Source: Gemmatimonadota bacterium (lineage in GTDB: Bacteria > Gemmatimonadota > Gemmatimonadetes > Palauibacterales > KS3-K002). Taken from it: 26,499 bases of DNA. Below, in pieces: positions 1,755-25,440 of this stretch. The DNA lies in assembly GCA_039586795.1 (NCBI GenBank), contig JBDHJS010000047.1, positions 1 to 26,499 of the forward strand, read 5' to 3'. The notes beneath the pieces are model-generated. The model made no database searches, was not told the origin of the DNA, and worked only from the letters and a program-made list of their open reading frames with translations. The translations under genes and the position numbers were made by a program. The first letter of the stretch is position 1. Every line of letters begins with the position of its first letter.

Positions 1755-1803
1755 GTAGTGACAGACGTAGTGCCGACACAGTCAGCGCTGGTGTCCAACA
1801 GTC
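1755..1803 (+). repeat. Junction element A, left arm (direct repeat of 25245-25293)
   Basis: 45/49 nt identical to 25245-25293. Contains tandem GTAGTGACAGAC/GTAGTGCCGAC units. Confidence 0.9.
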
Positions 1804-1855
1804 AGCGCAGAATCGTTGAAATCAGCCCACCAGCGCTGGTGAGCGCTGCTTTTCG

Positions 1856-1904
1856 GCTTTGGGAGCAGGAGGTCCCCGGTGGAGGCTCACACCGGGCGCC
1901 CCGA
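1856..1904 (+). other. 3' half of a tRNA-Pro(TGG)-like sequence with an altered T-loop (att-like remnant)
   Basis: Reads GC-TT-TGG-GA-GCAGG-AGGTC-CCCGG-[TGGAGGCTCACA]-CCGGG-CGCCCCG-A: anticodon loop TGG, 3' anticodon stem, variable loop, T-stem and 3' acceptor strand. No 5' acceptor strand (CGGGGCG) upstream. Confidence 0.75.
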
Positions 1905-2096
1905 TTTACTGAATCGATTGCCACCGCAATGGCTTACGGCAATTCCCTTTCTGGCTATCCCAGCGCTTTTTAGGGCCTGGATGTTTGATGTCAGACAGAT
2001 GCAACGGTCGTGGAGGTCGAGCTGTCTAATCTGAGCAAAGCTGGGCTAACCCGCTTACTAGCTGAATTCTTAGGGACCTTCGACAGGAGCTGAACC

Positions 2097-2927
2097 ATGC
2101 AGTTACGTGCGATCGTTGTTGCACTTGCTCTCTGGGCCTTTCCTCTTCCCGTGTTCTCTCAACAATCGCCTGCGGAGAGCCAGACTTCGGCTAACCGCCC
2201 CCAGGTGTTGGTACTCGGCGTCTACCATATGGCGAATGCGGGAAGCCACGTTGTCGATGTGGAAGTTGATGATGTCCTCGCGGCCAAACGCCAAGCTGAG
2301 ATTGCCGATGTGATAGCGGTCCTCAAGAGGTTCCAGCCAACTAAGATCGCCCTCGAAGCAGATTATCATGAAGGCGACGTCATTGCGAGTCGTTACAGCG
2401 ACTATCTGAATGGCGTGCGGCCGCTCACCCGGAACGAGAGGCAGCAGATTGGCTTCCGTCTCGCCAACGAGCTTGGACACATGACGGTGTATTCTGTGGA
2501 CGCCGATGGCGACTTCCCGTTCCAACGAGTGGAGGATTACGCCAGGACGCATGGGCGCACGGAGGAGTTCGATACGTTGATGGGTGAATTGAGAGACAGG
2601 GCGGAAGCGTGGAAAGAGTATCTTGCCTCCCACAGCGTGCTCGAAGCGCTGCTCTACATGAACTCCGATGGCTACGCAGAACAGAGCCTGGGTTTCGATT
2701 ACCAAATTGCGCACCTCGGCGAGCCATGGAATTGGGCCGGTCCCGATTTGGTTACTGACTGGTTCAGGCGCAATATTCGAATCTACAGCAACGTCCTACA
2801 ACTCATCGACTCTCCCAACGAGCGGGTGCTGGTCATCTTCGGCGCCGGACATCTCGGGTGGCTGCGGCACAACTTCGCTAGCGACCCCAACGTCCGTCTG
2901 CGCAATCTCGCCGAATTTGCGAGATAG
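2097..2927 (+). CDS. Secreted DUF5694-family protein
   Basis: RBS AGGAG, signal peptide, and motifs VLVLGVYHMAN, FQPTKIALE, NERQQIGFRLA, WFRRNIRI, LVIFGAGH. Confidence 0.8.
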   Translation: MQLRAIVVALALWAFPLPVFSQQSPAESQTSANRPQVLVLGVYHMANAGSHVVDVEVDDVLAAKRQAEIADVIAVLKRFQPTKIALEADYHEGDVIASRYSDYLNGVRPLTRNERQQIGFRLANELGHMTVYSVDADGDFPFQRVEDYARTHGRTEEFDTLMGELRDRAEAWKEYLASHSVLEALLYMNSDGYAEQSLGFDYQIAHLGEPWNWAGPDLVTDWFRRNIRIYSNVLQLIDSPNERVLVIFGAGHLGWLRHNFASDPNVRLRNLAEFAR

Positions 2928-2984
2928 CCGCAGCTCGAAAGAGTCGCAGTGCGTCTATCTCGCCCCGTCGCGGCGAGCTGGCGA

Positions 2985-3013
2985 CGGCACCGCAATCGAC
3001 TTTAGCGGTGCCG
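2985..3013. terminator. Hairpin between convergent ORFs
   Basis: CGGCACCGC-N11-GCGGTGCCG, a perfect 9-bp stem with no strong U-tract. Confidence 0.35.
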
Positions 3014-3072
3014 CTCGGCTTTCAGGCGCACCGCCAGGTGTCGACCGTCCACCGACTATTGTCGACTGGCTC

Positions 3073-3387
3073 TCAGAAGCCGATCGTCACAGCCAGGTTG
3101 AACACCGGGCGCGTAATGGTCGGGTTCTGTGGGAGCTCGGCGAGGTTGCCAGGGCCCATCGCCGACCCGGACTGCGAGTCGAACGGAATCTGGCTGCCAA
3201 GCTTGTGGAAGTAGAGCAGAAGATCACCGCGGATACCCACATCGATGCCATTAGGGATAGGGGCGTAGCTGCGAATCAACATCCGTTCGAACCCGCCCCC
3301 AAGGTGCCACGTGTTGGGCAGAAAGGACGACAAATCGGAGATGGTAGGTTGGCGGATCCATGGGCCGTTTGGGGTGTCGAGCAGCAC
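3073..3387 (-). pseudogene. Probable C-terminal fragment of an outer-membrane beta-barrel protein
   Basis: Alternating beta-strand pattern ending PVFNLAVTIGF. No signal peptide, and an in-frame stop lies 7 codons upstream. Confidence 0.4.
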
Positions 3388-3473
3388 GCTCGGGCTCGCT
3401 CGACATCAATCGGTTCACGTACGTGATCGAGATTGGGGCTGGAGTGTGGTGATAATCTCCCGCACACGCTGAC

Positions 3474-3773
3474 GTGAACGAGACTTTTGACCTCGTTTCC
3501 CACACCGACACCGGGGGAGAAGAGCTGTTCGCGAAAGGGGTCGGCAAAGCTGTGTCTCCACCTGTCATTGAATCGAGCACCGAGACGGTCTTTGACAGCT
3601 TCGACGATCTACGTAAAGAGATGATCGCCGAAGCGGGCAGGCTCGGGGGAGAAGCCCTGATCTTAGGGCAGGAGTCCACCGACTCTGAGTTCATCTTCAC
3701 GGGAATCGCCATGATCAAGTCCGACAGGAGAAGAATGACTGGCGAGGTCATTGTGTACAACCAGGGCGAGTGA
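3474..3773 (+). CDS. Small hypothetical protein or fragment with a YbjQ-like segment
   Basis: FDDLRKEMIAEAGRLGGEALIL...MTGEVIVY resembles the YbjQ/heavy-metal-binding fold. No clear RBS, so possibly a remnant. Confidence 0.4.
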   Translation: MNETFDLVSHTDTGGEELFAKGVGKAVSPPVIESSTETVFDSFDDLRKEMIAEAGRLGGEALILGQESTDSEFIFTGIAMIKSDRRRMTGEVIVYNQGE

Positions 3774-3905
3774 TTCTGGTTGGGCAGGCCACGAGAAAGA
3801 CGCCGGCTCAATCCCTTACAAACGTGCCTACACCGGCAGTCCTTTCCGCGTGGCTTGACGGCAGGGGAGCACTTTCACCTAAGTCTTATCCGGAAGAGCG
3901 TTCCC

Positions 3906-4754
3906 GTGAGAAGAGTCTTCAGTCTCCTCAGTCTTCTGGCGCTGGTGGTCTTGCCGACAGCGCCCTCCCCTAGCCCAGGTGGAGCGCCGCGAGGTGCGCA
4001 ACCTGGTGTTGGAGGACACTCCCGACATGTCGCGGGAGATCGTGCAGCGCATGCGCCAGTACACGAATTACCGTTCGGCGAGATTCACCGGCTGGGATCC
4101 TGACGGGCAGGGCCTGTACGTCGCGACCGGTTCGCAGATCCACTACGTGGAGCGACCTGGCGGCTAGCGGGAGCAGTTCACGTCCTTCAACGAGCCTGTG
4201 CGTGAAGTCGCTGTCCGACCCGCCGGTCAGCCGGCGGGATTCTTGTTCCTCAAGGAAGTAGGAGGGAGTGAGTTCTATCAGATCTTCTACTTCGACGTGG
4301 CGACCGGTGAACACAGCGTGCTCACTGACGGCCAGTACTGGAAAGGAGGCCATGTCTGGTCGCAGGGGGGTGACCGTTTCGTCTACTACAGCACAGCCCG
4401 CAACGGCCGCGACTGGGATATTTATGTGGCCGACGTGGAGGACCCTGGTGCCGCCCGCATGGTTCTGGAGGCCGAGGGTGTCTACTATCCGATGGAATGG
4501 TCGCCTGACGATTCCCGCTTGCTGGTGCGGCAACAGGTGTCGTGGACAGAGTCGTACCTGTACGTGGTTGACCTAAGTGGCGGTGAGGTCACCCAGCTGA
4601 ATCCCTCGGATGAGAAGATCGCTTACGGAAGAGATGCAGCCTGGTCCCGCGACGGCCTAGGCGTCTACTACACGTCCGATGAGAACAGCGAATTCCAGCG
4701 TCTCCGCTACTGCGATCTGGCCACTGGCCAGAGCACGGTTCTCACAGGAGACAC
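3906..4754 (+). pseudogene. S9-family (prolyl oligopeptidase-like) peptidase pseudogene, beta-propeller part only
   Basis: GTG at 3906 gives a signal peptide (VRRVFSLLSLLALVVLP). A frameshift near 3965-3975 leads into QVERREVRNLVLED...YTNYRSARFTGWDPDG. In-frame TAG at 4165-4167, then propeller repeats (GGSEFYQIF, WSPDDSRLL, WSRDG, TSDENSEFQRL). Similarity stops at LTGD (about 4752) and no catalytic domain follows. Confidence 0.85.
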
Positions 4755-4792
4755 CGCCCCGACTAGTAACCACGCGGTCTTTCGGCTAATCG
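4755..4792 (+). repeat. Junction element C: tRNA-Pro 3' core plus right flank
   Basis: CGCCCCGACTAGTAACCACGCGGTCTTTCGGCTAATCG is 32/38 identical to 25342-25379. All six mismatches are transitions. Confidence 0.85.
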
Positions 4793-4899
4793 ACGCCAAC
4801 TGTGGCTTATCGTGGGAGGTCGTTGACTGAGCAACGCCTCTACGTTGGTGACAAATCGCTTGTTGGTCGAACACGGCGCTCGCATATTGGTCCGGTACT

Positions 4900-7362
4900 A
4901 TGATGGGTGTCGGATGGTTGATCGCCCAGGTTCGCGCACTGACGCCGGCGCCATTGGCGGCGTGTTTATTGGCGTCGAGCGCCTTCAGCTGTCGGAGCGG
5001 GCCGCCGCCTCTCACCGCAGACCGTCCCCTTCATTTGGAAGAGCATCTCGATGTAGCCCATGTCGCGGCCACGACCCCTGGGCGGGTTCCGGCGGTTTTC
5101 GAGTGGCGTTTCGAGGGACCGCAATCGGGCTGGACGTCCGTAGCTCAGGCCGATCCTCGCATCGGTGCTCCCCAGTTGGAGCAAATCGGGAACGCGCTGC
5201 GCGTATCGCTGACCGAGGCCAATCGTGACCGCAGCAGCGGCCGCCTTCGTGGTGAGATACGGACGGAGCTTTCCGATTCGAAGCTCGAAGATTGGGGCTA
5301 CGTGCTCGTGCGGGCACGCAGTTCGGAGGCAGCGCGTGGGTTGGAGCTTGGGGTCGTTGTCCGCGGAGCAGCCGATCAGCGCGGTGATCCGCGAGGCGTA
5401 GTGCGTTCGGGTGGGGTAGCCGCTGTCATCGGCGACGGCACGATAAGGAGCCATATACTCCGGGTCGAGCCGTCGCGATCGGGCGTTGAAGACGAACAGA
5501 CGCAGATCGGACTGGTGTTGGCGGCCGACGAGCCGGCCAGCATAGAGCTTCTATCGGTGAGCATCCTCCAGATGGAGGCCGACTACGCCGACACGGCTGT
5601 GGGGGTTCGCAGCGAAGTCAGAAGCGGGGTGCACCGGCGCGCCGTCCACATCCACACGCCGGGTCGGCTGGAGTACCGGATCCGTGTGCCCGATGCAGGC
5701 CGGCTAGACATTGGTTTGGGAGTCCAGCGTGACAACGCGCCGGTGATATTCAGGATCGCCGCCGAGCGCGCAGACGGCGAGAGCGTGTCACTGTTCGAAG
5801 AGGTGTACTCCGACGCCGAGAACTGGGGCCAGAGGACCGTCGACCTGTCCAGCCTGGCCGGGGAGACTGTAATCTTCGCGCTCGAAGTCGAGGCGGAGAG
5901 CACGGGCACCGTGGCGTTGTGGGGCTCGCCGACGCTGAGCGGCCCACGCACGCCCGACAAGCCCAACGTGGTTCTCTATGTTATAGACGCAGCAGCCGCC
6001 GATTACATGAGCGTCTACGGCTACGACCGCGCTACGACGCCCAATCTCGAACGGCTGGCTGCGGAAGGCGCGATCTTCGAGCGCGCCTACAGCAACTCGA
6101 GTTGGACCAAGCCTTCCACCGCCTCGTTCATGACGTCGTTACATCACAGCGTACTGGGCGGCTACGAGTACAACTCCGATCCGGTGCCGGACGAGGCGGC
6201 CACGATTGCCGAGCTCTTGCATGTAGCCGGTTACCAGACGGGCGCCTTCGTATTCAACCCCTTCGCCGGTTCGCTCAGCGATCTGCAACGCGGAGTGGAC
6301 TTTCTTAACGAGGGCGGTGGCGCGTACGACAGGCCATCGGTAGCGCGGTTGCATGAGCGGTATTGGCGCTGGCGCGAGGCCTACCCCGGTGAGCCCTACT
6401 GGGTGCACTTCCAGATCGGCGACGTACATCCTCCCCATAATCCGGTGCCACCGTTTGCTGGACGCTTCGTGGATGCGGAGCGCCGACGGGATTTCTACGA
6501 GTGGCAGCGTCGGCTCGAGGACGCAGGCGGCCGCGGACGCTTCGAGCGCTTTTTTGCCAGCCGGAGTTTGACCTACGCCGACGTCTTCGAGCGGACGGGC
6601 ATCGATAGACTCGACTACTATGCCGTCCGCGGCGGGCTGTATGACGAAGGCATGGCCAGCGTCGACGAGCAGATCGGTCAGCTGGTCCAGCGTCTGAAGG
6701 AAATCGGCGAGTGGAGGCACACTCTGTTCATTGTGGCGGCCGACCACGGCACTCACAGTCAGCAGCGGCTGGGACAGCTAGATCCGCTGCCTCCGCCGTG
6801 GGGCCCGATGTTCAGAAGCTCGGTGGCCCGCATCCCGTTGATCGTGGTTTGGCCGGAGCGAATCGCACCGGGTCAGCGATTCGCGGACCCCGTGTCGATG
6901 ATCGACCTACTCCCGACCACCATCGACCTCACCGGCGTTACCGGACCCGACATCAGGCAGGGCCAGTCGTTGGCACCGTTGCTGCTGGGACAGGAGGGCT
7001 GGGAAGCGCGGCCCGTGATCCTCGACGAGTTCAACATCGACCGCGCGACGCGCGAGTTCCGGGGCGTGATCGAGCTCATCGATGGGCGATGGGGTGCCTC
7101 GTTGGAGATCAACCCCGACCCGTCGGCGCCGGCGGAGATCCAGCGACCGGCTCCGCTGTTGCTGTATGATCTCGTAAACGATCCGTATTGTCTGCAGAGC
7201 GTGCACGAAGAGCACCCCGATCTAATCGAGAAGTACGGCCGGTTACTTGAGGCCAAGTGGACCGAGCACCAGGCGCTCGGTCAGCGCTTCAGTCGCGCGC
7301 GCGCGTTGCCGATCGGCGCCGAGCAGCTGCGGATTCTGCGGGCGCTCGGCTATATTGAATGA
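4900..7362 (+). CDS. Sulfatase-like hydrolase/transferase (alkaline phosphatase superfamily) with a long N-terminal region; putative lipoprotein, paralog 1
   Basis: Motifs KPNVVLYVID, YGYDRATTPNLERLA, SNSSWTKPSTAS, DVHPP, VAADHG, VSMIDLLPT, LYDLVNDP and C-terminal LRALGY. Lipobox-like AFSC. Confidence 0.85.
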   Translation: MMGVGWLIAQVRALTPAPLAACLLASSAFSCRSGPPPLTADRPLHLEEHLDVAHVAATTPGRVPAVFEWRFEGPQSGWTSVAQADPRIGAPQLEQIGNALRVSLTEANRDRSSGRLRGEIRTELSDSKLEDWGYVLVRARSSEAARGLELGVVVRGAADQRGDPRGVVRSGGVAAVIGDGTIRSHILRVEPSRSGVEDEQTQIGLVLAADEPASIELLSVSILQMEADYADTAVGVRSEVRSGVHRRAVHIHTPGRLEYRIRVPDAGRLDIGLGVQRDNAPVIFRIAAERADGESVSLFEEVYSDAENWGQRTVDLSSLAGETVIFALEVEAESTGTVALWGSPTLSGPRTPDKPNVVLYVIDAAAADYMSVYGYDRATTPNLERLAAEGAIFERAYSNSSWTKPSTASFMTSLHHSVLGGYEYNSDPVPDEAATIAELLHVAGYQTGAFVFNPFAGSLSDLQRGVDFLNEGGGAYDRPSVARLHERYWRWREAYPGEPYWVHFQIGDVHPPHNPVPPFAGRFVDAERRRDFYEWQRRLEDAGGRGRFERFFASRSLTYADVFERTGIDRLDYYAVRGGLYDEGMASVDEQIGQLVQRLKEIGEWRHTLFIVAADHGTHSQQRLGQLDPLPPPWGPMFRSSVARIPLIVVWPERIAPGQRFADPVSMIDLLPTTIDLTGVTGPDIRQGQSLAPLLLGQEGWEARPVILDEFNIDRATREFRGVIELIDGRWGASLEINPDPSAPAEIQRPAPLLLYDLVNDPYCLQSVHEEHPDLIEKYGRLLEAKWTEHQALGQRFSRARALPIGAEQLRILRALGYIE

Positions 7363-7372
7363 GGTGAGATCC

Positions 7373-9874
7373 TTGACCGAGATCCGGCTCTACGTCCCCT
7401 TGGCGATGGGGCTCCTGGCTTTGGGCAGCACCGGCTGCGAGTCCCGCCGGGCACCACTCACCGCTGACAGTCCGCTTCACCTCGAAGACCATCTAGACGC
7501 CGCGACGATCGTCGGTTCCGAGATCACTAGCGGCCTTCCGCCGCTGGCCGAGTGGCGTTTCGATGAGGCGCAACCCGATTGGAAACCGGTCACCGACACG
7601 GATCGCTCGATGGGCAGCCTTCGTGTGGTGAAAACCGACGAGGCACTACGGGTGACCCTTGATGAAGACGAGCGTGAGGCGAGCGCTGGCCGTCTGCGGG
7701 GCGAGATCTCGGTTGGTCTTGAGCAATCGGAACCTGCGGATTGGAGCTACGTGCTGGTGCGGGCGCGAAGCTCGGTCGAGGCCCGCGGATTCGAGCTCGG
7801 TGCGCGCCTGGCCGATGAGCCGGTAGGAGGCGGCGGCCTCGGCGATCGGAGCGGCCTGCAAGCCTCGGTCGTGGCCGTAATCAACGATGGCCAGGTTCAA
7901 ACCTACGTGATGCCGTTGGCGCGAGCGGCCGATCACCCGTTCGATCCGGCCGTCAGCGCGCCATGGGGGAGCGCGCACGGGGGGACGGGCGGCCTCAGGG
8001 AGGCGGAGCCGCAGGAGCGAACCCGGCGGCTCGGACTGGTGTTCAAGGCCGATGATCCCGCCAGCATCGACCTGCTGTCCGTCTCGATAATCCCCCTGGA
8101 GACCGACTACGCCGACGTTCCGGTGGGCGTGCGAACGGTGGCGCGCGGTGCCGTGCAGCGACGGACGCTCTACACCCACGCGCCCGGGCGCGTCGACTAC
8201 CGGATTCGGGTGCCCCAGGGTGGCCGACTCGATGTCGGCCTCGCAGTGCTGCGGGATGACGCCCCTGTGACGTTCAGGATCGGTGTCCGCGGAGCGGACC
8301 GTGAGACGCAGACGCTGCTGGAGGAATCGTACTCCGACGGCGCACGCTGGGGGCAACGGACCCTGGATCTCTCCGATTATTCAGGGCAGATAGTGAACCT
8401 GTCGCTCGAAGCCGAAGCGGAGCGCGCCGGGACGGTGGCGCTTTGGGGGGCGCCGACGCTGACCGGCGTGCGGGCCACCGTAAAACCGAACGTCATCTTC
8501 TATGTCATCGACGGGGCCGCCGCCGAGCTGATGAGCGTTTACGGCTACGAGCGTGGCACGACGCCGAATCTGGAGCGGATCGCTGCGGAAGGAGCGATCT
8601 TTGAATACGCGTACAGCAACTCTGACTGGTCGAAACCCTCGACCGCCTCGTTCATGACCTCACTCCACCACAGCGTGCTCGGTGGATTGGACCGGTCGGA
8701 TCCCATACCGGACGAGGCGCGGACGATGGCGGAGCTGCTGCACGCCGCCGACTACCAGACAGCCGTGTTCGCCTCTAACCCCTACGCCGGGTCGCTCAGT
8801 AACCTGCAGCGCGGGGTCGACGTGTTCCGTGATGGTGATGTCCAGGTCAAGTCGATGGCCGCTGCCGAGCTGCACGCCGACTATTGGAGCTGGCGCGATG
8901 CGTATCCGGGGGAGCCGTATTGGGTCCACTTCCAGCCCACCGATGTTCACGATCCGTGGGAATCCGTGGCGCCGTTCGCGGGACGCTACGTCGATCCCGA
9001 GCGGCGGTCGCGTTTCTATGAATGGCGCGCGCAGTTGCGCGAGGCCGGAGGGTTCGCGCGGTGGTGGGCTCACTTCGACGAGTTCGGGATCGACCGGCGC
9101 GAATTCTCCGAGATCGGCAGCGACCTATACGATGAAACGATGGCTCACCTCGACCATCGGATCGGCCGACTGGTGGAGCAGCTCAAGGCCCGTGGCGAGT
9201 GGGAGCGTACGCTGTTCGTCGTCGCGGCCGACCATGGCCAGTACGAGGCGGGTCTCCCGCTGCTCGATCCCATGCCGCCGGGGCTCGTGGCGCCCGGAAA
9301 GTGGACGCCGAATATCAGCGCTTGGGTCAGCCGCATCCCGCTCATCATCGTCTGGCCGGAGCGCATCTCCCCCGGGCAGCGCTTCAGCGATCCTGTCTCG
9401 ATGATCGATGTGCTGCCCACCATTCTTGAGCTGACCGATACACCGGGCCCTGAGATTCTGCAGGGTCGTTCGCTGGCACCGTTGCTTCTCGGAGAGAAGC
9501 GTTGGGAGCCGACGCCGGTCATCCTGGACGAATTCTATGTCGATGAGAAGACCGGCGAGCTCAATGGTGTGATCGAGGTGGTCGATGGGCGGTGGGGTGC
9601 GTCGCTGGAGATCAACCCCACCGACCGTGGCGAGTGGATTCCGCCGGAAAACCGTCGACCGGCGCCGCTGCTTCTCTACGACCTGCGAAAGGATCCCCAG
9701 TGCCTACACAGTCTGCACGAAGAACGGCCGGACCTGGTGGAGAAGTACACCGCCTTTCTCGAGGCACGGTGGGGCGAGCACCAGGCGCTGGCTCAGCGGT
9801 TCACGCAGCCGCAGGCGATGCCGATCACCGCCGAACAACTGCGGGCGTTGCGTGCGCTCGGCTACATTCAGTGA
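7373..9874 (+). CDS. Sulfatase-like hydrolase/transferase, putative lipoprotein, paralog 2
   Basis: Collinear with paralog 1 (PLTADSPLHLEDHLD, KPNVIFYVID, SNSDWSKPSTAS, VAADHG, LRALGY). TTG at 7373 follows a GAGGTG RBS, and the signal ends in a lipobox STGC. Confidence 0.85.
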   Translation: MTEIRLYVPLAMGLLALGSTGCESRRAPLTADSPLHLEDHLDAATIVGSEITSGLPPLAEWRFDEAQPDWKPVTDTDRSMGSLRVVKTDEALRVTLDEDEREASAGRLRGEISVGLEQSEPADWSYVLVRARSSVEARGFELGARLADEPVGGGGLGDRSGLQASVVAVINDGQVQTYVMPLARAADHPFDPAVSAPWGSAHGGTGGLREAEPQERTRRLGLVFKADDPASIDLLSVSIIPLETDYADVPVGVRTVARGAVQRRTLYTHAPGRVDYRIRVPQGGRLDVGLAVLRDDAPVTFRIGVRGADRETQTLLEESYSDGARWGQRTLDLSDYSGQIVNLSLEAEAERAGTVALWGAPTLTGVRATVKPNVIFYVIDGAAAELMSVYGYERGTTPNLERIAAEGAIFEYAYSNSDWSKPSTASFMTSLHHSVLGGLDRSDPIPDEARTMAELLHAADYQTAVFASNPYAGSLSNLQRGVDVFRDGDVQVKSMAAAELHADYWSWRDAYPGEPYWVHFQPTDVHDPWESVAPFAGRYVDPERRSRFYEWRAQLREAGGFARWWAHFDEFGIDRREFSEIGSDLYDETMAHLDHRIGRLVEQLKARGEWERTLFVVAADHGQYEAGLPLLDPMPPGLVAPGKWTPNISAWVSRIPLIIVWPERISPGQRFSDPVSMIDVLPTILELTDTPGPEILQGRSLAPLLLGEKRWEPTPVILDEFYVDEKTGELNGVIEVVDGRWGASLEINPTDRGEWIPPENRRPAPLLLYDLRKDPQCLHSLHEERPDLVEKYTAFLEARWGEHQALAQRFTQPQAMPITAEQLRALRALGYIQ

Positions 9875-9875
9875 C

Positions 9876-10391
9876 ATGAGATCACGCTCTAAGCCGATGC
9901 TGGTATTCGCTGCGGCTCTGACCTGTGCCGGTTGCCAGCCCCGAGCCGCGCCGCCCGAACCGCTCTCTGAAGCGGACGCTACGGCGATTCGGGACCTGGC
10001 CCGCTCGTACTTCGAGGCGGTGATCGGAGAAGACGCGAGCGCGCTCTCCGCTCTCTACGCGGACGACGCCGTACTGATGCCCCCGTACCGACCGGCGATC
10101 GAGGGGCGTGCCGCGATCGAGGCGGCCTTGGCCTTACCGGACGCGTTCAACCAGGGACTGAGCTACTGGGGTATCACCTTGAGTCCCGACGCGCGCGGCG
10201 GCGAATGGGTGTACGATTGGGGCACCTACGCCTTGCTGCTCGCGCCCGATAGCGTACCGCTGAATGAGAGGAGGCCGGACCTGGATACGATGCCGGACTC
10301 CGTGGCACACGCCGGAAAGTATCTGGTCGTACTCCGGAGGCAGGTCGACGGGTCCTGGTTGATCGCCAGAGAGATCTGGACGAAAGACTGA
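9876..10391 (+). CDS. NTF2-like/DUF4440 (SnoaL-like) lipoprotein
   Basis: ATG 1 nt after the upstream stop. Lipobox CAGC and motifs ALYADDAVLMPP, GRAAI, YDWGTY, GKYLVVLRRQVDGSWLI. Confidence 0.8.
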   Translation: MRSRSKPMLVFAAALTCAGCQPRAAPPEPLSEADATAIRDLARSYFEAVIGEDASALSALYADDAVLMPPYRPAIEGRAAIEAALALPDAFNQGLSYWGITLSPDARGGEWVYDWGTYALLLAPDSVPLNERRPDLDTMPDSVAHAGKYLVVLRRQVDGSWLIAREIWTKD

Positions 10392-10416
10392 CCGCGGCGG
10401 TTTCCAGGCTTCGATG

Positions 10417-11409
10417 CTAGCGCGGGCGATTCCGCTCAATCGCGCCGCGATGCTCGCCAAAAGTCCGAGAGAACTCGTGCCGGCCATCCTGGCGAGCGAC
10501 GAAAAAGAGATAATCCACCGGTGCCGGGTGCAGCGCTGCGTCGATGGCCGCTTCGCCGGGTGAGCAAATTGGGCCCGGCGGCAGGCCGTCGTGACTGTAT
10601 GTGTTGTAGGGGTGATCGGTGAGCGAATCGATGTCCGTGTATCGCAGTGGTGTGTTCGGCGGCAGCGCGTAGCGAACCGTCGGATCCGCCTGAAGACGCA
10701 TCTCCTGCCGCAGCCGGTTGTGGAACACCGCCGAGATGAGGGGCATCTCATCCTCCCAACGGGACTCGGCCTGGATGATACTGGCCAACGTGACTGCCTC
10801 GCGCTCGCTTATGCCGAGCGAGTCGAGCCTCGCACGGCGAGCCGGCGTCCACAGCTGCCGGTAGCGCGCAAACAGCAGGGCTGCGATGCTTTCCAACCGT
10901 TCGCCGAGGCGCACCTCGTACGTCGCTGGAAAAAGGTAGCCTTCGAGGGTCGGGCCGGGCGCGCCCAGCGAATCGGCGAGGGCTGCGTCAAGCAGGCGCT
11001 CCGCGGCCGAGTCCGGCGAAAGCCCTGCGATGGGCCCGATCCGATTGGCGATCTCAGCGATCCGCCAGCCTTCCGGAAGCGTGACGCCTTCCGCCACGCG
11101 ACCCATGACTAGGATCTCGAGGGCCACCGACCAGCTGGCGCCGCGCGGGAAGTCGTAGATGCCGGCTTTGAGCTTCTTGTCGGCGCCCTGGAGGCGGACA
11201 TAGAGGACGAAGAGGGCTGGCCAGCGAATGACGTCGTGGACGGCGAGCATATCCGCGATCTGATCGAGCGTCGCGCCCGCCGGCACGACGAGTCGTTCGC
11301 TGTCCGGATCCGGCTCTCGGCAGGCAGCCAGGGCGACTGCGACGAGACACACGGTCATCGACAGCCTCGAACGGCGCCCGGCCATCGGTGTTCGGCTGAA
11401 TTCAGTCAC
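10417..11409 (-). CDS. mltG: Endolytic transglycosylase MltG (YceG family)
   Basis: Motifs LKAGIY, TLPEGW, LEGYLFPATY, LASIIQAE (catalytic Glu position), VFHNRL, LQADPT, PYNTY, GLPPGPICSPG, YLFFVA. The start may be 11385 or 11358. Confidence 0.92.
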   Translation of the reverse strand: MTEFSRTPMAGRRSRLSMTVCLVAVALAACREPDPDSERLVVPAGATLDQIADMLAVHDVIRWPALFVLYVRLQGADKKLKAGIYDFPRGASWSVALEILVMGRVAEGVTLPEGWRIAEIANRIGPIAGLSPDSAAERLLDAALADSLGAPGPTLEGYLFPATYEVRLGERLESIAALLFARYRQLWTPARRARLDSLGISEREAVTLASIIQAESRWEDEMPLISAVFHNRLRQEMRLQADPTVRYALPPNTPLRYTDIDSLTDHPYNTYSHDGLPPGPICSPGEAAIDAALHPAPVDYLFFVARQDGRHEFSRTFGEHRGAIERNRPR

Positions 11410-11473
11410 GACGTGTCAACCTGTCCGCTGGAAGAAGATTCCGCAAGCGAGAACTTGGCATGAACAGTGCTTA

Positions 11474-13051: not shown

Positions 13052-13552
13052 ATGCGCGTCCGGCTTCTTTGCGCTTTAGCTGTCGGAATCGCAGCAGCTG
13101 GCTGCCGTGCGCCGGCGCGGGACGTCGGTCCGCTGTCACCTGACGATGTTGCGGCGATCGTCGATGTACGTGAACGGTTCGTCGAGTACGAGCTGGATGG
13201 CGCTTGGGCGGACCAGGCCGCGCTGTACACAGAGGACGCCGCCCTGCTGGAACCGGAAGGTCCGGTCATGGTGGGCCGGACGGCGATTCGGCTCGGGCTG
13301 GAAGAATTCGACATCGTTCTTGAAGATTTCAAGCTCACGTCGCTCGAGATCGAAGGCGCCGACGGTCAGGCCTATGATCGCGGCATCTACTCTCTGGAAT
13401 ACCTGGATTACCGTAGCGGCGACACGATCACCGAGACGGGCAATTACCTAATGGTCCTTCGCAAGTACTCGGACGGAACCTGGCTCATCGCCGCACTCAT
13501 CCATAACTCTAATCAGTCCCTAGATGGGCCCAGTTCTACGCCCGATCCGTGA
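13052..13552 (+). CDS. NTF2-like/DUF4440 lipoprotein (second copy)
   Basis: Lipobox AAGC and motifs ALYTEDAALLEP, GRTAI, AYDRGIY, GNYLMVLRK...DGTWLI. Similar to 9876-10391. Confidence 0.8.
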   Translation: MRVRLLCALAVGIAAAGCRAPARDVGPLSPDDVAAIVDVRERFVEYELDGAWADQAALYTEDAALLEPEGPVMVGRTAIRLGLEEFDIVLEDFKLTSLEIEGADGQAYDRGIYSLEYLDYRSGDTITETGNYLMVLRKYSDGTWLIAALIHNSNQSLDGPSSTPDP

Positions 13553-15579: not shown

Positions 15580-15784
15580 TGATCGGTTCAGAGGTGCCGG
15601 AACACAACCTTCAGCCCAAAGTCGATAGCCGAACAGGATTCGGGCGTCGAGCGACGGCTGTCCGCTGTCGGCTGTCGAAATATCCCGCCAAAGGCGGGTC
15701 GATTATTCCAGCTGAACTCCAGGAGGAGATCCTCGTGGACCTGACCGGTGGTAGCTCACACCGCCCAGCCGGGTGCCCTAAGCC

Positions 15785-15813: not shown

Positions 15814-15851
15814 AAGACTTAAACACCTGTGGACAGGATCAGCCAGAGAAA

Positions 15852-18218
<2,367 letters not shown>

Positions 18219-18270
18219 TCAGGATATGGATTTTTGCCCTCCAGGGCCAAGAGGGAAGGGAAACCGTCAG

Positions 18271-19218: not shown

Positions 19219-19380
19219 GAGGCACTCCAGAGTGCAGCTTGGAATCACTGCCGATCCTGCCGGATGTCCGGATCACGTCCGGGGGAGGGGGGCTTCCAGT
19301 CTTTGCACCGACCGGACCGTGTCATGGTAGCGATCTTTCGGGCAATAGGTTTACGGACGCGGGCCAGAGTAGGTAGATGG

Positions 19381-19419
19381 CCGCACCTCGCCCCCCCCCT
19401 CCGACCCAGAGGTCCCACA
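19381..19419 (+). repeat. Junction element E (degenerate right-flank copy)
   Basis: CCGCACCT (identical to 25424-25431) followed by CTCCGACCCAGAGGTCCCACA, which resembles CTCCGACCCATAGACCCACA at 20373-20392. Confidence 0.45.
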
Positions 19420-19478
19420 TTTCCGAAGGTGGTCTCCAGAGGCCGCTGGAAATCGATCCCGATGCTGAAGTAGACGCG

Positions 19479-20267: not shown

Positions 20268-20334
20268 CTTGTTCCTCCTCTCGTGGTTGGAGAGCGCGTC
20301 ATGCGCTCTCCGGCGCGCGGCCTGATTCGCCCAA

Positions 20335-20380
20335 AATCGCGAGGTGACCCACGGACGTGACCTACGTCCGCCCTCCGACC
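20335..20380 (+). repeat. Junction element D (right-flank copy)
   Basis: 20335-20365 is 25/31 identical to 25394-25424, with two TGACC units at 13-nt period. CTCCGACC follows, as at 25433-25440. Confidence 0.75.
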
Positions 20381-20688
20381 CATAGACCCACAAATGATGA
20401 AACCTTGATTCGAGGCGGTGTTTGGCCTCCCTCTGGCATCCCCGCCGATCGCATCGTGACCTCGTCGGCATCGAGATGCGCACTGACCGTTTGCCGATCG
20501 AAGAGATGCTCGAAGCCGCTTTCCCCGGCGAGCTGCGTCTTCCAGAACGGCACACTGAAGTGATTCATGATCTCGATGACTCGGTCGCCCTGCATCCGAG
20601 ATGGATGAAACTCCTTGAGGGAGTCGTCGACGCCCGCGATTCCGTCGATGCGAGCGCGCCTGGGACGCCGAAGTGCGCTTCGGGGCAT
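20362..20688 (-). pseudogene. Probable gene remnant (possible alpha/beta-hydrolase C-terminus)
   Basis: GGAGG RBS plus ATG, and GC3-rich codons. GDRVIEIMNHFSVPFWKTQLAGE resembles the terminal helix of alpha/beta hydrolases. The 3' end runs into element D. Confidence 0.35.
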
Positions 20689-20722
20689 AGACCCCTCCGT
20701 GGAGTGTCGAGTTTGGGCAAAC

Positions 20723-20740
20723 TAATAATAATAATAATAA
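20723..20740. repeat. (TAA)6 microsatellite
   Basis: TAATAATAATAATAATAA, an 18-nt pure AT tract in a GC-rich context. Confidence 0.95.
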
Positions 20741-21050
20741 GTGATATTCCTTCCCTGGCTCTGTCAAGGGAGATCCGCAATGATTGCAACGATACGACGA
20801 CCCGATATTGTCAGCCCTGTGGGGCCTGATCCGGCCATCAGGCTGGGGGAACCTCGCGGAACACTGATCCTCACTCGGGCATGGGTCTACCCTCGTTGTT
20901 TGGCCGTACCTTGTGTTTCGTCGGGCTGTGGGCAAGATTTTCCCGTTGCCCCAGCAGCGTAGCGACCCTGTTTTCCTCGTGCGGGAAACGGAGTGTAAGA
21001 GCAAGGCAGGAGATGTTGTAGTACCCGGTCGTCAACGACAACTGGCGATA

Positions 21051-21106
21051 AGGGGACAGTGACCATGACTGCGCTGGGGCCAGCCGGTCAAAGGTTACTG
21101 TCCCCT
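21051..21106. repeat. REP-like inverted repeat
   Basis: AGGGGACAGTGACC-N28-GGTTACTGTCCCCT, 13/14 complementary with one G-T pair. Confidence 0.7.
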
Positions 21107-21189
21107 CAGTTTATGCAGTTGTCTGACTGTTCTGAGTTCGTGCGGCAGAAGAACAACTGTTGGACCCCTTAGGCAAACAAGGAATAACC

Positions 21190-22908
21190 ATGGCGGCGAC
21201 ATTCATCCTGGCCGACAGTTCGCGAGCACGCTACGTCACTGGGTCGATGATGTATTTCGCGCAGGGCATCCCACAGGGCCTGCTGGCGATCGCCATACCT
21301 GCCTGGCTGGCAAGCCAGGGCGTCGGCGCCGCTGGTATCGGTTCCTACCTCGCCGTGATCGTCTTACCCTGGGCATTCAAGCTGGTTACCGGTCCCTTGA
21401 TGGACCGCTATGAGTATTTGCCGATGGGTCAGCGCCGGCCGTGGGTGCTGGGCGCGCAGCTGGGGCTCTCGCTGTCACTGCTCGCACTCATGTTAATCGA
21501 GCGCCCCGCCGAACAGTTGGGCCTGCTGATGCTGATCGGGGTCGTCATCAACAGCTTTGCCGCAACGCAGGATGTCGCGGTCGACGGTATGGCGATCGAT
21601 CTCACGCCGCTCAAAGAGCAGGGCCGACTGAATGCGTTCATGAGTTTCGGTAAGGCGGTCGGTTGGGGGGCGACTTCGGCCGTGACAGGCGTGCTTCTGG
21701 TGACTTTTGGGATGAAGTTCACGGCGATTGTCGCGGCAGCCGTTGCCGGCCTCGTACTGCTTGCCTTCGTTTTCGTTCTCGAGCGCGAAGGCGAGCGGGC
21801 GCTGCCCTGGACGCCCGGCGAAGCGAAATCGGAGCATCGTCCGGGTAACTCGTTCCGGGCTGTATTCAGCGGCATCAACAGTGTGCTCTGGAAACGCGCC
21901 AGTCTGGTCATCATGATTATCATGTTCTTCGATGGTCTGGTGACCGGCTTCGGCCAGGCACTTATGCCGGTCGCCGCAGTGAACTTATTTGGCTACACGA
22001 CACCACAATGGTCACAGTTGGTCGCGATGATGGGGCTGACCGGCGCAGTTTTCGCGCTCATGCTCGGCCCCGTGATCGATCGCATCGGTGCCAAGCGGAT
22101 ACTGCTCGTGACGGCCTCGTTGGTCGGCCTGCATGCGCTGCTAATAGCCGAGACACAGCACCTTTGGCAGAACACTATCTATGTACGAGTGATGCTGTCG
22201 ATCTGGGTAATGATGCTGCCCGTAGTGATGGTCTGTATCATCGCGCTGGCGATGGCGATCTGCTCCACCAAGAACTCGGCGACACAGTTCGCCATTTACA
22301 TGTCGATGGCCAACCTGGGGTACTCGGCAGGGTCGAAGGTCTACGGCATGGTCGCCGAGCGTTCGACTTACGTGGAGACCTACATATTGCTCAGTCTGTT
22401 CGTCGTGGTATTGATTTTCGTGCTGTTCTTCCATCGCCATAGGGAGGAGGGGGGGTCGAAAACCGGTCTCAAGGCAGCTCCTAAGCACACCATCGCGATC
22501 GCGGGGAGCGAAGCCGGGCTCTTCTGGTCCGGCGTCATGCGGTGCCCTAAATGCAGTTCTTACCTGGAGCAGGTCAAGTACGACGGTATCGAAGTCGATC
22601 GCTGCGTCACGTGCAGCGGGATCTGGTTCGATGACGGGGAGGTAGAGCTGTTGCGCAACAAGAGGGCAGCGGCTGCGATAGACATCGGCGACGCGAAACG
22701 CGGGGCGGAGCTCAATGCCGTCGACAGCTATCGATGTCCGCGCTGCGGTGACGCGATGGCGCGCGTGGTCGACGCACGGCAGCGGCACATCTGGTATGAG
22801 ACATGCCGCGGCTGTGATGGATCATTCTTCGATGCCGGCGAGTTTCTCGATCTCGCCCAGCTGACGCTATCGGACCTGTTCAAGACGCTGGTGGCGCCGA
22901 AACGCTGA
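21190..22908 (+). CDS. AmpG-like (PAT family) MFS transporter fused to two C-terminal zf-TFIIB-type zinc ribbons
   Basis: Motifs YFAQGIPQG, LPWAFK...PLMDR, GQRRPW, AATQDVAVDG, SATQFAIYMSMANLG with about 12 TM segments. In-frame C-terminal CPKC...IEVDRCVTCSGIWFDDGE and CPRC...ETCRGCDGSFFDAGE. Confidence 0.85.
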   Translation: MAATFILADSSRARYVTGSMMYFAQGIPQGLLAIAIPAWLASQGVGAAGIGSYLAVIVLPWAFKLVTGPLMDRYEYLPMGQRRPWVLGAQLGLSLSLLALMLIERPAEQLGLLMLIGVVINSFAATQDVAVDGMAIDLTPLKEQGRLNAFMSFGKAVGWGATSAVTGVLLVTFGMKFTAIVAAAVAGLVLLAFVFVLEREGERALPWTPGEAKSEHRPGNSFRAVFSGINSVLWKRASLVIMIIMFFDGLVTGFGQALMPVAAVNLFGYTTPQWSQLVAMMGLTGAVFALMLGPVIDRIGAKRILLVTASLVGLHALLIAETQHLWQNTIYVRVMLSIWVMMLPVVMVCIIALAMAICSTKNSATQFAIYMSMANLGYSAGSKVYGMVAERSTYVETYILLSLFVVVLIFVLFFHRHREEGGSKTGLKAAPKHTIAIAGSEAGLFWSGVMRCPKCSSYLEQVKYDGIEVDRCVTCSGIWFDDGEVELLRNKRAAAAIDIGDAKRGAELNAVDSYRCPRCGDAMARVVDARQRHIWYETCRGCDGSFFDAGEFLDLAQLTLSDLFKTLVAPKR

Positions 22909-22967
22909 ATGATGTTCAGGCGACACCGGTGCGTGGAGTGTGACACAATTAGGAGAGGCAATAAGAC

Positions 22968-23078
22968 GTGACTAAGGGCGGAACTGGATTAACGTTGGTT
23001 CCTGTGGCGGTCGCGGCGTTGGCGATCGGTTACCTGGTCGGTCGCACGGCGACAGTGCCGCCGGCGCCCAGGAGGTGA
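22968..23078 (+). pseudogene. Orphan N-terminal signal/anchor fragment (36 aa)
   Basis: AGGAGAGG RBS plus GTG. Reads MTKGGTGLTLVPVAVAALAIGYLVGRTATVPPAPRR then stop. Confidence 0.45.
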
Positions 23079-23109
23079 GTCCCACCAAGGCGATTTCGAC
23101 AAGATCTTC

Positions 23110-23496
23110 CTCGGTCACCTCGGCCCTGCTATGTGGTTCCCGTTTGGTGCTACCCCGGTCCTCAGGTCACGGTTGGGTGAGGAGCGTGCGGCGCGCTACT
23201 TCGACATTCGCTCGATGCTCGATGCGGGGATCACCGTCGCCTGGGGTAGCGATTGGCCGGCCGGCACGCCGGATGCGAACCCGTTCAGGGGGCTCGAGGG
23301 GCTCGTGACACGCGGCCACCCGAGCGGAGACGACGAAGGGACTTGGGGCGTGCCGATCACGCTCGAGGAGGGGATCCGAATCCTGACGATGGGTTCGGCC
23401 TACGCTATGGAGCGCGGGGTTTCGATAGGCTCGATCGAGGTGGACAAGCACGCAGATTTCATCGTCCTCGATCGTGATCTCTTCGAGATTCCGCCG
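23110..23496 (+). pseudogene. YtcJ-like amidohydrolase (Amidohydro_3) C-terminal fragment
   Basis: RLGEERAAR, SMLDAGITVAWGSDWP, NPFRGL...VTR, ITLEEGIRILTMGSAYA, GSIEVDKHADFIVLDRDLFEIPP. Most of the domain and the last strands are missing. The left boundary is approximate. Confidence 0.8.
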
Positions 23497-23500
23497 CGTG

Positions 23501-23524
23501 TGACCTTCCGCATCCCCTCCGACC
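23501..23524 (+). repeat. Junction element F (right-flank copy)
   Basis: TGACCTTCCGCATCCCCTCCGACC is 21/24 identical to 25417-25440. Confidence 0.8.
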
Positions 23525-23765
23525 CGGCTGTTTTGACCTGGGTCGTCACCGCGTTCATTCCCCAGGACGTAGGCCCTCTTCTCGGTTCCCGACGCCCCGA
23601 CTTCGATCCCTCTAGGAGGTTCCGTGGCCCCCCCCTTGCTACTTGAGCTGGTCTTCGCTAGTCGTGTCGTCCAATCTCTATGTAGGCCTTGCCGGGTATG
23701 GACAGTAGGAACGAGAATCGGCTGGTCACGCAATCAGTCACTACGAAAGGCGAAGGAGCTGGGGG

Positions 23766-25190
23766 ATGAGAAAGGCCTCTGTATTGACCTTATTGGCGCT
23801 ACTCATGCTGCCGTCAACGGCGCTTACACAGGACAGCCAACCCAACATCGTGTTGGTGTTCATGGACAACTTCGGATGGGGTGAGCTGGGCGCGTACGGC
23901 GGCGGCATCCTGCGCGGGGCGCCGACGCCACGCATCGACCGGCTGGCCGACGCGGGCATGCGGCTGCTCAACTTCAACGTCGAGGCGCAGTGCACGCCCA
24001 GTCGCGCCGCCATCATGACCGGCCGCTACGCCATTCGCACCGGCAATGCCGAGGTGCCTCTCGGCGTTGGACAATACGGCCTGACCCAGTGGGAATACAC
24101 GCTGGCCGAAATGTTGTCCGACGCCGGCTACGCCACCGGCATGTTCGGCAAGTGGCACCTGGGTGATACGCCAGGGCGTTATCCCACTGACCAGGGCTTC
24201 GACGAGTGGTTTGGCATTCCTAATTCGTCGGATGAGAGTTACTGGCCGGACAATGATCTCTTTCGGCCCGGCGTTCATCCGCTGGTCAAGTACGAGCACG
24301 TCATGGAGTCCGAGCGCGGTCAGAGTCCGAGAGAACTGGAGGTCTATGACAGTGCCAGGCGCCTGACCATCGATCGCGAGATCACCGACCGCACCGTCGA
24401 TTTCATGCGGCGGAAAGCAGCAGGGGACAAGCCGTTCTTCGTTTTCGTTCCCTACACCCAGACGCACCTACCCGTCGAGCCGCATCCCGATAACAAGGGG
24501 AGGACCGGTAACGGCCATTGGGCCGATGTGTTGGCCCAGACCGATGCCTATGTTGGGGAGATTCTTGACGCGGTCGACGAGTTGGGGATCAGGGACAACA
24601 CGATCTTCATCTTCACGGCAGACAATGGGCCCGAGGGCGCCATTCCGCATCAGGGGTTCTCCGGCCCCTGGCGCGGCAGCTATTTCACCGGGCTTGAGGG
24701 ATCGCTACGTGTGCCTTTCTTGATTCGCTGGCCTGGAAGGATACCGGCGCGGCGCGTCTCAAACGAGATAGTGCACGAGATGGACCTCTTCGCGACGTTC
24801 GCTCGGATAGCAGGCGGCGAAGTACCCGACGACCGCGTGATCGACAGCGTTGACCAGACTGACTTCTTCACGGGTGAGACCGAGCAATCTAATCGAGAGT
24901 CGGTGGTTGTCTATGTAGGCAGGGAGCTCTACGGCGTAAAGTGGCGTGAATGGAAGATGATGGTGAAGGAAGTCAGCACTATCGGCGGCGACCCGGTCCG
25001 GAGTTACGGGGTTCCGCTGTTCTACAATCTGTTGCTGGATCCGAAGGAAGAGTACCCGGTCCTCAATGCGCCCCCGAATTTCTGGGTCCGATATCCGGCT
25101 GGCCAGGTGCTCGTCGATCATGCGCGATCGCTCCAGATGGAGCCACCGATTCCGCCAGGTACGCCGGATCCGTACACGCCGACGAGATAG
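23766..25190 (+). CDS. Secreted arylsulfatase (Cys-type, formylglycine-dependent)
   Basis: GGAG RBS, signal peptide, and motifs PNIVLVFMDN, TPRIDRLA, CTPSRAAIMTGR (CxPxR), GKWHLG, QGFDEWFG, FTADNG, EGSLRVP. Confidence 0.93.
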   Translation: MRKASVLTLLALLMLPSTALTQDSQPNIVLVFMDNFGWGELGAYGGGILRGAPTPRIDRLADAGMRLLNFNVEAQCTPSRAAIMTGRYAIRTGNAEVPLGVGQYGLTQWEYTLAEMLSDAGYATGMFGKWHLGDTPGRYPTDQGFDEWFGIPNSSDESYWPDNDLFRPGVHPLVKYEHVMESERGQSPRELEVYDSARRLTIDREITDRTVDFMRRKAAGDKPFFVFVPYTQTHLPVEPHPDNKGRTGNGHWADVLAQTDAYVGEILDAVDELGIRDNTIFIFTADNGPEGAIPHQGFSGPWRGSYFTGLEGSLRVPFLIRWPGRIPARRVSNEIVHEMDLFATFARIAGGEVPDDRVIDSVDQTDFFTGETEQSNRESVVVYVGRELYGVKWREWKMMVKEVSTIGGDPVRSYGVPLFYNLLLDPKEEYPVLNAPPNFWVRYPAGQVLVDHARSLQMEPPIPPGTPDPYTPTR

Positions 25191-25244
25191 GCGCGAGGCT
25201 GGCTTGATCCAACGTTGGTCACTTTGATTGCCAGGCTCGTGTGG

Positions 25245-25440
25245 GTAGTGTCAAACGTAGTACCAACACAGTCAGCGCTGGTGTCCAACAGTCGGTGTTC
25301 GGTATGAAGGCGCCTGTCGGCGCCTTCAACGCGAATCCGGGCGCCCCGACTAACAACCGCGCGGTCTCTCGGCCGATCGGCCGGCCCGGGCGGAATCACG
25401 ATGTGACCTACCGACCTGACCTTCCGCACCTGCTCCGACC
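25245..25440 (+). mobile_element. Junction element B: the most complete att-like site (left arm, hairpin, tRNA-Pro 3' end, right flank)
   Basis: Left arm 25245-25293 matches A. Hairpin TGAAGGCGCC-TGTC-GGCGCCTTCA at 25305-25328. CGAATCCGGGCGCCCCGAC at 25332-25350 is a T-loop/T-stem/acceptor 3' end. The right flank matches C, D, E and F. Confidence 0.65.

Follow-up and report, generated by a model that had tools for sequence, protein, structure and literature searches.

Why should pieces of one tRNA gene recur, all in the same orientation, along a stretch of bacterial DNA in which tRNA gene calling finds no tRNA gene? The stretch (hereafter the window, 26,499 nucleotides) is the entire contig JBDHJS010000047.1, here C83, of the Gemmatimonadota assembly GCA_039586795.1 (4.68 Mb, 107 contigs, 97.8% complete). 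Tyrosine integrases target tRNA 3' halves, duplicate them at attachment (att) sites and bind nearby tandem arm repeats. A first-pass annotation, made from the letters alone, had noticed six related non-coding pieces (A to F) and had read them either as debris of repeated integrations by one tRNA-Pro-targeting family or as an integron-like capture platform. Comparison with related genomes (labelled G002, G004, G017 and so on; G000 is the source genome itself) makes it quite probable that the repeats are junction remnants, consisting of an arm repeat and a tRNA-Pro(TGG) 3' half, and that they record successive insertions of small islands, loss of the integrases, and deletions. The window is likely a decayed tRNA accretion island of the type formed by cis-mobilizable elements (CIMEs) or by the ssrA islands of Dehalococcoides, and not an integron.

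Most of the pieces are related beyond chance. A and B are 92% identical over 49 nt and C and B 84% over 38 nt, and the alignments of A, C, D and F with B, as well as those of A and B with the tRNA, were each better than 300/300 shuffles. The claim that all six pieces match part of B therefore stands for A, C, D and F, but the weakest copy, E, falls short: its alignment with B was equalled by 159/300 shuffles, and it matched D only (1/300 shuffles as good). The match to the host tRNA-Pro, which the first-pass annotation had set as a test, is exact, at 25/25 bases in A (1856-1880) and 18/18 in B (25332-25349). The single tRNA-Pro(TGG) gene called in the source genome lies at C19:53274-53349, 114 bp short of the end of that contig. 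An arm motif drawn from the A, B and C19 copies, with at most one mismatch, has three matches in the genome: A, B and a site just behind the C19 tRNA-Pro. Because motifs drawn from the window are circular, we made two profiles exclusively from relatives' sequences, a junction profile (14 sequences) and a second-end profile (11 sequences). At E<=1 the latter gave four matches in the 4.68 Mb genome, all on the + strand and all in the window contig (B flank, 6e-30; C, 3e-5; F, 7e-4; D, 0.009); E was unmatched, and the reversed-window control gave one match at E 1.3. At E<1e-6 the junction profile recovered A, both halves of B, and two sites on the source contig C82. Since the second-end matches stay within the window contig and on its + strand, the copies are not scattered genome-wide, and the scatter that had been named as a refutation was not seen. 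Their spacing is uneven, with no copy detected across 11 kb between 4.85 and 15.7 kb. We also compared the window with contigs from four sequencing runs, one of which might be the source sample; the best run shared 0.42 of the window's words. Contigs of other runs bridge C, D and the right part of B, whereas the internal deletion of A and the left deletion of B were unbridged among the run contigs listed.

The relatives reveal what these pieces derive from. At a loose threshold, a search with copy B matched 35/41 genomes, with strong multi-copy matches only in the family of the source. There, a full junction of ~215 bp comprises a two-unit direct repeat, an 80-bp spacer and a tRNA 3' half that starts at the anticodon loop; the tandem repeats are putative integrase arm sites, judging by their position. 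In most sampled fragments the tRNA half is itself interrupted by an insert of 58-69 bp with two hairpins, which replaces T55 in the T-loop, and in 23/30 insert-bearing Pro(TGG) copies the tRNA match ahead of the T-loop spans exactly 25 nt, starting at the anticodon loop. B had been taken as the complete reference unit, which it is not: A and B are different deletion products of the ~215-bp junction. A retains the arm, the spacer and the tRNA half and has lost most of the insert, whereas B lacks the middle and keeps the right hairpin, so that the two halves of the insert survive separately and it could not be recognised from the letters of the window alone. A second end type has left its remnants in C, D and F, and probably in E. 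The copy extents given earlier needed correction, as F reaches ~23606 and the flank of B reaches 25486, and the set of six was incomplete, with two more degenerate copies at ~3780-3820 and 15745-15782. The features are as follows.

1756..1775, + strand: arm-type direct repeat of copy A, two 8-bp units with a 12-bp period; putative integrase arm
1776..1855, + strand: conserved spacer of copy A, from arm to tRNA half (relatives' profile)
1856..1880, + strand: tRNA-Pro(TGG) fragment of copy A, anticodon loop to T54 (25/25 identical)
1881..1904, + strand: copy A, first 13 bp of the insert joined via 2-bp microhomology to the tRNA 3' end (full-junction comparison)
3780..3820, + strand: probable degenerate junction (one run contig only)
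3885..4754, + strand: S9-family peptidase pseudogene, cut at copy C (Pfam propeller matches)
4755..4792, + strand: copy C, final 9 bp of the tRNA and start of the second end type (profile, alignment)
4796..4851, + strand: 56-bp piece of a third element end (relatives)
15745..15782, + strand: degenerate junction beside the katG 3' end (homology to G023)
19394..19419, + strand: copy E, weak second-end-type remnant (matches D only)
20335..20389, + strand: copy D, second-end-type arm repeat (alignment, profile)
23500..23606, + strand: copy F, where the second end type passes into a degenerate 3' end of tRNA-Pro (profile)
23766..25190, + strand: secreted-type sulfatase, cargo of the unit ending at B (Pfam)
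25246..25293, + strand: arm repeat and first part of the spacer of copy B (alignment, profile)
25294..25331, + strand: right hairpin of the T-loop insert in copy B (covariance model, E 1.4e-11)
25332..25349, + strand: tRNA-Pro(TGG) 3' end of copy B (18/18 identical)
25350..25486, + strand: second end type, which has a tandem arm repeat of its own (profile, E 6e-30)

The arm repeat of A is kept in 14 full junctions of relatives, its spacer is 82-91% identical across many family genomes, and the junction profile matches 1756-1899 at E 2.7e-40. The copies had been placed at the boundaries of unrelated gene blocks, with C and F at cut genes, and this is borne out by synteny, whose breaks against relatives coincide with copies. 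One run contig matching 3061-3802 goes on into the first hairpin of the insert, and from 3821 onward homology begins to a tRNA-Pro array of a relative: window 3821-4522 shares 95% identity with the DNA that lies behind a tRNA-Pro junction of G015, a member of another genus. The S9-peptidase pseudogene is 90% identical to a G017 gene that continues intact beyond window position 4749. Contigs from two runs, each belonging to a different study, span the cut at C: one covers 4351-4821 (3 differences), the other 4544-4803 (12 differences). The adjoining piece at 4796-4851 has no other copy in the source genome and is 88-96% identical in 4/30 relatives, where it stands behind a different arm repeat; run X4 has loose ends at 4796 and 4851. 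The copy at 15745-15782, weak alone (profile E 2.5), was exposed by G023, in which the homologous katG end lies directly behind a full junction.

For E, one run contig found at low stringency joins a B-type flank to 19417 via a D-like stretch, while D lies inside a run contig covering 20136-20842 with 1 difference. F is 74% identical over 208 nt to G043, and in G004 the equivalent of window position 23631 is directly behind a tRNA-Pro half. The amidohydrolase fragment at F is truncated, as had been claimed; since its Pfam match ends at ORF (open reading frame) residue 138 (~23545), at profile position 466 of 472, F lies at or just inside the 3' end of the gene, and the larger loss is of the 5' part. 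The sulfatase ahead of B has paralogues, 59% identical, in junction-bounded units of G014, G015 and the source contig C82, and an 89% identical copy in G005 with no junction within its ~300-bp flanks. A run contig covers 25323-25643, the right part of B, with 0 differences. The second end type of this flank stands directly behind intact tRNA-Pro in G012 and G004, and behind other junctions elsewhere.

Junctions built in this way were found in 13 genomes and at 16 metagenome loci, and in relatives tandem arrays stand behind intact tRNA-Pro. Defining units as gap-free stretches between consecutive junctions of one tRNA type, we obtained 57, and 41 after removal of duplicates and inter-tRNA spacers (13 genomes and 1 metagenome contig). 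Their median length is 2206 bp (range 134-10156); 20 contain one ORF, nine none, and 12 two or more. Gene orientation is mixed, at 12:8 in single-gene units and 32:23 among all unit ORFs, and an integrase match occurs in 1/41 units, as a remnant. Among 215 ORFs scanned around junctions there was one phage-integrase family match and one IS110 domain match, with no conjugation gene and no replication gene; the remaining ORFs with matches are cargo such as hydrolases, kinases and transporters. The cargo of the window had been described as mostly secreted or lipoprotein genes, which is roughly right on a crude test: a hydrophobic N-terminus occurs in 13/17 window ORFs and a lipobox-like motif in 8/17, with the MFS transporter excluded. 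Junction-bounded units stand behind an intact tRNA on single contigs in G005, G004 and the source contig C82 (tRNA-Ile), whereas single-contig relatives contain 100-N gaps, so that their coordinates cannot position arrays relative to the tRNA. In G005, G016 and G041 several units retain an arm repeat at each end; cores and arms are intact in many relatives' units, but most of the window's copies are truncated. From genome to genome, LolA-DUF1302, katG and the sulfatase either adjoin different ends or have none: the LolA-DUF1302 block leads into tRNA-Pro(GGG) junctions in G007 and G042, but into another arm in G009. Because these genes, and that of the S9 peptidase, are joined differently across genomes, cargo is not tied to one pair of ends.

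Several smaller observations concern such arrays. Behind tRNA-Ile(GAT), C82 ~29950-33672 holds a parallel array of three displaced halves, two with the insert, together with a sulfatase paralogue and a serine-hydrolase-like gene; ARAGORN calls one of the halves a tRNA. Gene-less mini-units of 134-156 bp, consisting of an end sequence and a tRNA half, were seen at L035, L171, L037, L055, L173 and L114, some of them common to several genomes. A 37-nt tRNA-Pro(CGG) fragment at C47:36598-36634 is possibly a further island scar.

Which enzyme built these arrays? No integrase is present among the 24 ORFs of the window. The source genome has three phage-integrase matches, of which two are full-length and probably represent XerC and XerD; the third is an IntI-like fragment on C22 (~5500-7100), near several attC-like sites; both labels come from sequence inspection, and neither feature is connected with the tRNA junctions. 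Searches with two queries detected a divergent tyrosine-recombinase family in 12 and 13, respectively, of the 31 family genomes, and both gave 0 matches in the source genome. Of its 21 loci, 14 contain a tRNA gene, and two members, in G041 and G017, are convergent on an intact tRNA-Pro(TGG); the G017 protein scores below the cut-offs of the tyrosine-recombinase models that it matches. Next to a G015 junction lies a remnant that shares 73% identity over 41 aa with the G017 protein, and the DNA behind this remnant is the stretch that is 95% identical to window 3821-4522. The suggestion to look for an intact tRNA-Pro with an adjacent integrase was thus partly successful: the tRNA is on C19, but no member of the divergent recombinase family was found in the genome.

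The T-loop insert is the less familiar component of these junctions. In a junction census, 79/79 copies followed T54, none kept T55 on the left, and 75 started and ended with G; the right junction was partly set by the query, since the search required 3' T-loop bases. Hosts are fragments of at least eight tRNAs, among them Pro(TGG), Pro(GGG), Ile, Lys, Arg(CCG), Ala, Gly and a long-armed tRNA, and the insert also occurs in 3 full-length spare tRNA genes (two of 4 rows initially taken as full-length matched a tRNA fragment and were left out). A covariance model search found no insert at the intact tRNA genes of the scanned loci. The left end was recognisable in 37/44 copies. In the hairpins 95% of cells pair and 5/22 pairs change on both sides, a score reached by 0/500 shuffles, with the proviso that the copies are related; z was -3.1 to -4.9 for three folds and -1.5 for a fourth. 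The insert is present in 26/31 family genomes, including 12/12 high-quality ones, and 42/43 loci sharing it are in records titled Gemmatimonadota or Gemmatimonadales. A DNA search of 401 genomes across the phylum gave full matches within the family only, the others being coding or chance on inspection, and a model search of 150 genomes of the class gave 2 marginal matches outside the family, neither in a T-loop. Viral contigs gave 0 matches, and so did Rfam at E<=1, searched with the window and 3 loci. Exact-word searching of the open-access literature found no description of such an insert. The source genome has a pair of long-armed tRNA-like genes of 85 nt, at C22:108170-108254 and C70:17908-17992; both are called Gly(GCC), they are 90% alike, and genes resembling them in G002 and G009 contain the T-loop insert.

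Because the same arm as in plugged junctions occurs in G041 and G043 with an uninterrupted T-loop, and because the insert also sits in full-length spares, it is separable from the island ends. The nearest neighbour of an insert in another genome shares its tRNA target in 40.5/54 cases against 22% expected, a count in which kin are not independent and from which 9/63 unclassified copies were left out. Active hopping within genomes was rejected, as same-genome copies on different tRNAs (0.746) are no more alike than between-genome copies (0.753). No long autonomous form emerged either: 39/54 left ends had a right end within 90 nt, and the remaining 15 proved to be false positives in coding sequence, contig ends, diverged copies, or truncated copies that run on into unrelated DNA. 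The 0 Rfam matches, and the one base that the T-loop would lack after removal, speak against a self-splicing or tRNA intron. A miniature inverted-repeat transposable element (MITE) is not suggested by a 31-copy alignment and the census of 79 junctions, which revealed no terminal inverted repeats or target-site duplication, nor is a derivative of repetitive extragenic palindromes (REPs) or IS200/IS605, given that the cognate Y1 transposase (PF01797) was found in 0/5 insert-bearing genomes. IS110 was found in 3/5 and reverse transcriptase in 1/5 of these, and the source genome has neither. Inspected by eye, the junctions fitted neither IS200/IS605 guide rules nor IS110 core duplication, attC geometry or the ends of group I/II introns.

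Serial insertion at a tRNA is a known route of bacterial gene collection. In the mechanism that we propose, an integrase-bearing circle would recombine in the anticodon loop, restore the tRNA, and displace the old half together with older units outward, so that repeated integrations would stack units. Integrase genes would then decay, deletions would erode ends and fuse cargo to new ends (as at A, B, C, D and F), and composites of units may sometimes move between genera. The insert itself may be a non-autonomous element; it would enter T-loops, persist only where the tRNA copy is a spare one, and be carried from genome to genome within multi-unit blocks. We infer for its history a rare insertion followed by passenger spread, the alternative being a fixed role in the end of each element. 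Excision via a plugged junction is predicted to move the insert into the sole tRNA-Pro(TGG) gene; such excision would therefore be lethal, ratcheting cargo into the chromosome. That the insert is a new minimal mobile element recognising T-loops and replacing T55, and that such plugs make excision lethal and create one-way cassette stores across genera, is a tentative proposal that we hold to be possible but rather doubtful.

Several observations weigh against this account. The window and the intact tRNA-Pro are on separate contigs, and no link between the two was shown. The arm repeats behind the G041 and G017 integrases differ from the arms of the window, which leaves the window's own ends without an assigned integrase, and no enzyme for the insert was found. 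Insert variants that track their target equally fit an insert that is a fixed part of each element's end, and the count of plugged junctions (37/41) is inflated, because the loci were found using the insert. The units stand out by their small size (median 2.2 kb), and 20/41 hold a single gene, so that they look more like cassettes than like products of random decay. Units of 134-181 bp, and duplications directly behind tRNA-Gly in which no arm is visible, could reflect another mechanism. A rival account, close to the second reading of the first-pass annotation, is an active platform in which small, integrase-free, two-arm units are excised and re-inserted by an integrase acting in trans. In its favour, 20/41 units are single-gene, 40/41 lack an integrase match, several G005, G016 and G041 units keep both arms, and a 700-bp stretch is 95% identical across genera. 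We nevertheless regard this as unlikely, and the integron-like reading as favoured only weakly by these counts, in view of the mixed orientation of single-gene units (12:8), the different or absent ends of LolA-DUF1302, katG and the sulfatase, the truncation of most window copies, the integrase remnants near junctions, and the lack of an in-trans candidate (0 matches to the divergent recombinase family in the source genome). Circular or empty-site joints, which the first-pass annotation had proposed to look for, did not appear among contigs of the four runs, though contigs drop rare variants. The other reading, debris of repeated tRNA-Pro integrations, is supported, but with several end types and not one family.

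It is more improbable still that the hairpin insert is itself the site of recombination or copying, recombining with the T-loop and duplicating the tRNA end, with the units as its products. The constant, precise junction (79/79 after T54, T55 never kept on the left), the hairpins conserved with compensatory changes, the variants that track the tRNA target, and the short duplications directly behind intact tRNAs would all accord with such a role; however, junctions with the same arm exist without the insert, the fragments begin at the anticodon loop, left-only and right-only remnants both occur with unrelated continuations, and Y1 transposase is found in 0/5 genomes, with no IS110 or reverse transcriptase in the source genome. 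Least probable of all, to the point that we give it hardly any weight, is that the joins are assembly chimeras at tRNA repeats. The assembly is metagenomic, the junction is multi-copy in communities (summed depth 9-286 versus ~5 nearby), and the deletion within A is unbridged, but C, D and the right part of B are bridged by contigs of other runs, the architecture recurs in 13 genomes and 16 metagenome loci, and the copies are diverged, not identical. We thus retain serial island insertion with subsequent decay as the favoured explanation.

How does this array compare with known systems? An integron has intI and attI at the head of an array of co-oriented cassettes with attC-type sites. The resemblance lies in arrays of small, often single-gene, integrase-free units, whereas here the sites are tRNA halves with arm repeats, genes run both ways (12:8 and 32:23), no intI is adjacent, and the window contains no integrase. 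By inspection, the insert lacks the attC box order.

A closer parallel is provided by studies that together describe tandem tDNA islands, integrase-less members and accretion (PMC4383910, 10.1101/2020.12.28.424599, PMC3146451, PMC9897764, PMC3733652, PMC5704250), and on these precedents the array would work like a CIME or ssrA-island stack. In Dehalococcoides, direct repeats of the tDNA 3' end delimit tandem ssrA islands, 15 of them integrase-less, with strain-variable adaptive cargo and proposed accretion (PMC3146451); in contrast to that system, which uses the T-loop and a serine recombinase, the present one involves tRNA-Pro (Ile, Lys, Ala, Arg and Gly in kin), a start at the anticodon loop, tyrosine integrases, units of ~2 kb, and a hairpin insert in the fragments. 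CIMEs are described as elements without integration or transfer genes that keep att sites, stack at a tRNA 3' end by accretion and, like related integrative and conjugative (ICE) or mobilizable (IME) elements, are moved as composites (PMC5704250). Integration and transfer genes are likewise lost from the window ORFs, junction ORFs and units examined here, and the 700 bp that are 95% identical across genera bear at most indirectly on movement. No conjugation gene was found among the 215 scanned ORFs, and most window ends are truncated.

Tycheposon-built Prochlorococcus islands, which arise by successive insertions at one tRNA, likewise have partial tRNAs and integrase fragments scattered through them; no replication module was found among our scanned ORFs, and the excerpted text does not mention a T-loop insert (10.1101/2020.12.28.424599). 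Islander recognises a tRNA and a co-oriented displaced 3' fragment, with the anticodon loop as its A sublocation, and requires an integrase per unit; the 'damage' it describes is a small 3'-end deletion, not a T-loop insertion (PMC4383910). Displaced fragments at this known sublocation are present here (25/25 in A; the same start base in 23/30 copies), and co-orientation on one replicon is seen in G005, G004 and C82, while the tRNA of the window's host lies 114 bp from the end of another contig. A tyrosine integrase per unit is absent, with none among 24 window ORFs and a remnant in 1/41 units. Island finders that need an integrase would miss such arrays. The insert, finally, is small, non-coding, hairpin-forming, lineage-restricted and multi-copy, as are REP, RPE and MITE sequences (PMC3733652), but it differs in its location in tRNA T-loops, in the loss of one target base, in lacking terminal inverted repeats or target duplication, and in the Y1/RAYT gene being found in 0/5 genomes.

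The array is therefore of a type already known, a route of gene gain mapped here in a little-studied phylum with exported hydrolases, lipoproteins and katG as cargo, and the unusual part is the T-loop insert with its predicted ratchet. An insertion into a universal tRNA loop that is precise to a single base, loses T55 and lacks the signature of any known transposase implies a recombination process or an RNA-based chemistry that has gone unrecognised. Should the insert block excision, this would explain the fixation of integrase-free cargo, and tRNA hot spots would become one-way stores for small cassettes, mostly of one gene, that encode exported enzymes.

Some further features of the window stand apart from the junctions. 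At 2986, after DUF5694, there is a sharp break at which contigs of all four runs and G020 diverge, with no att copy. Second copies of MltG and of an N-acetylmuramoyl amidase lie at 10417-11409 and 13524-15521, with lipoprotein-like genes between them; the MltG on C60 is 62% identical to the window copy, and no att copy was detected in this 11-kb block. A ~62-bp REP- or MITE-like repeat at 15619-15682 is dispersed genome-wide (78 BLAST pieces, often paired), and 123 bp at 22964-23085, upstream of the amidohydrolase fragment, are 78% identical to C24:34102-34224. The ORF at 21190-22908 combines an MFS transporter with two C-terminal zinc-ribbon domains. Tandem lipoprotein-type sulfatases at 4900-9874 are ~70% alike in DNA, and a third paralogue is found on C82.

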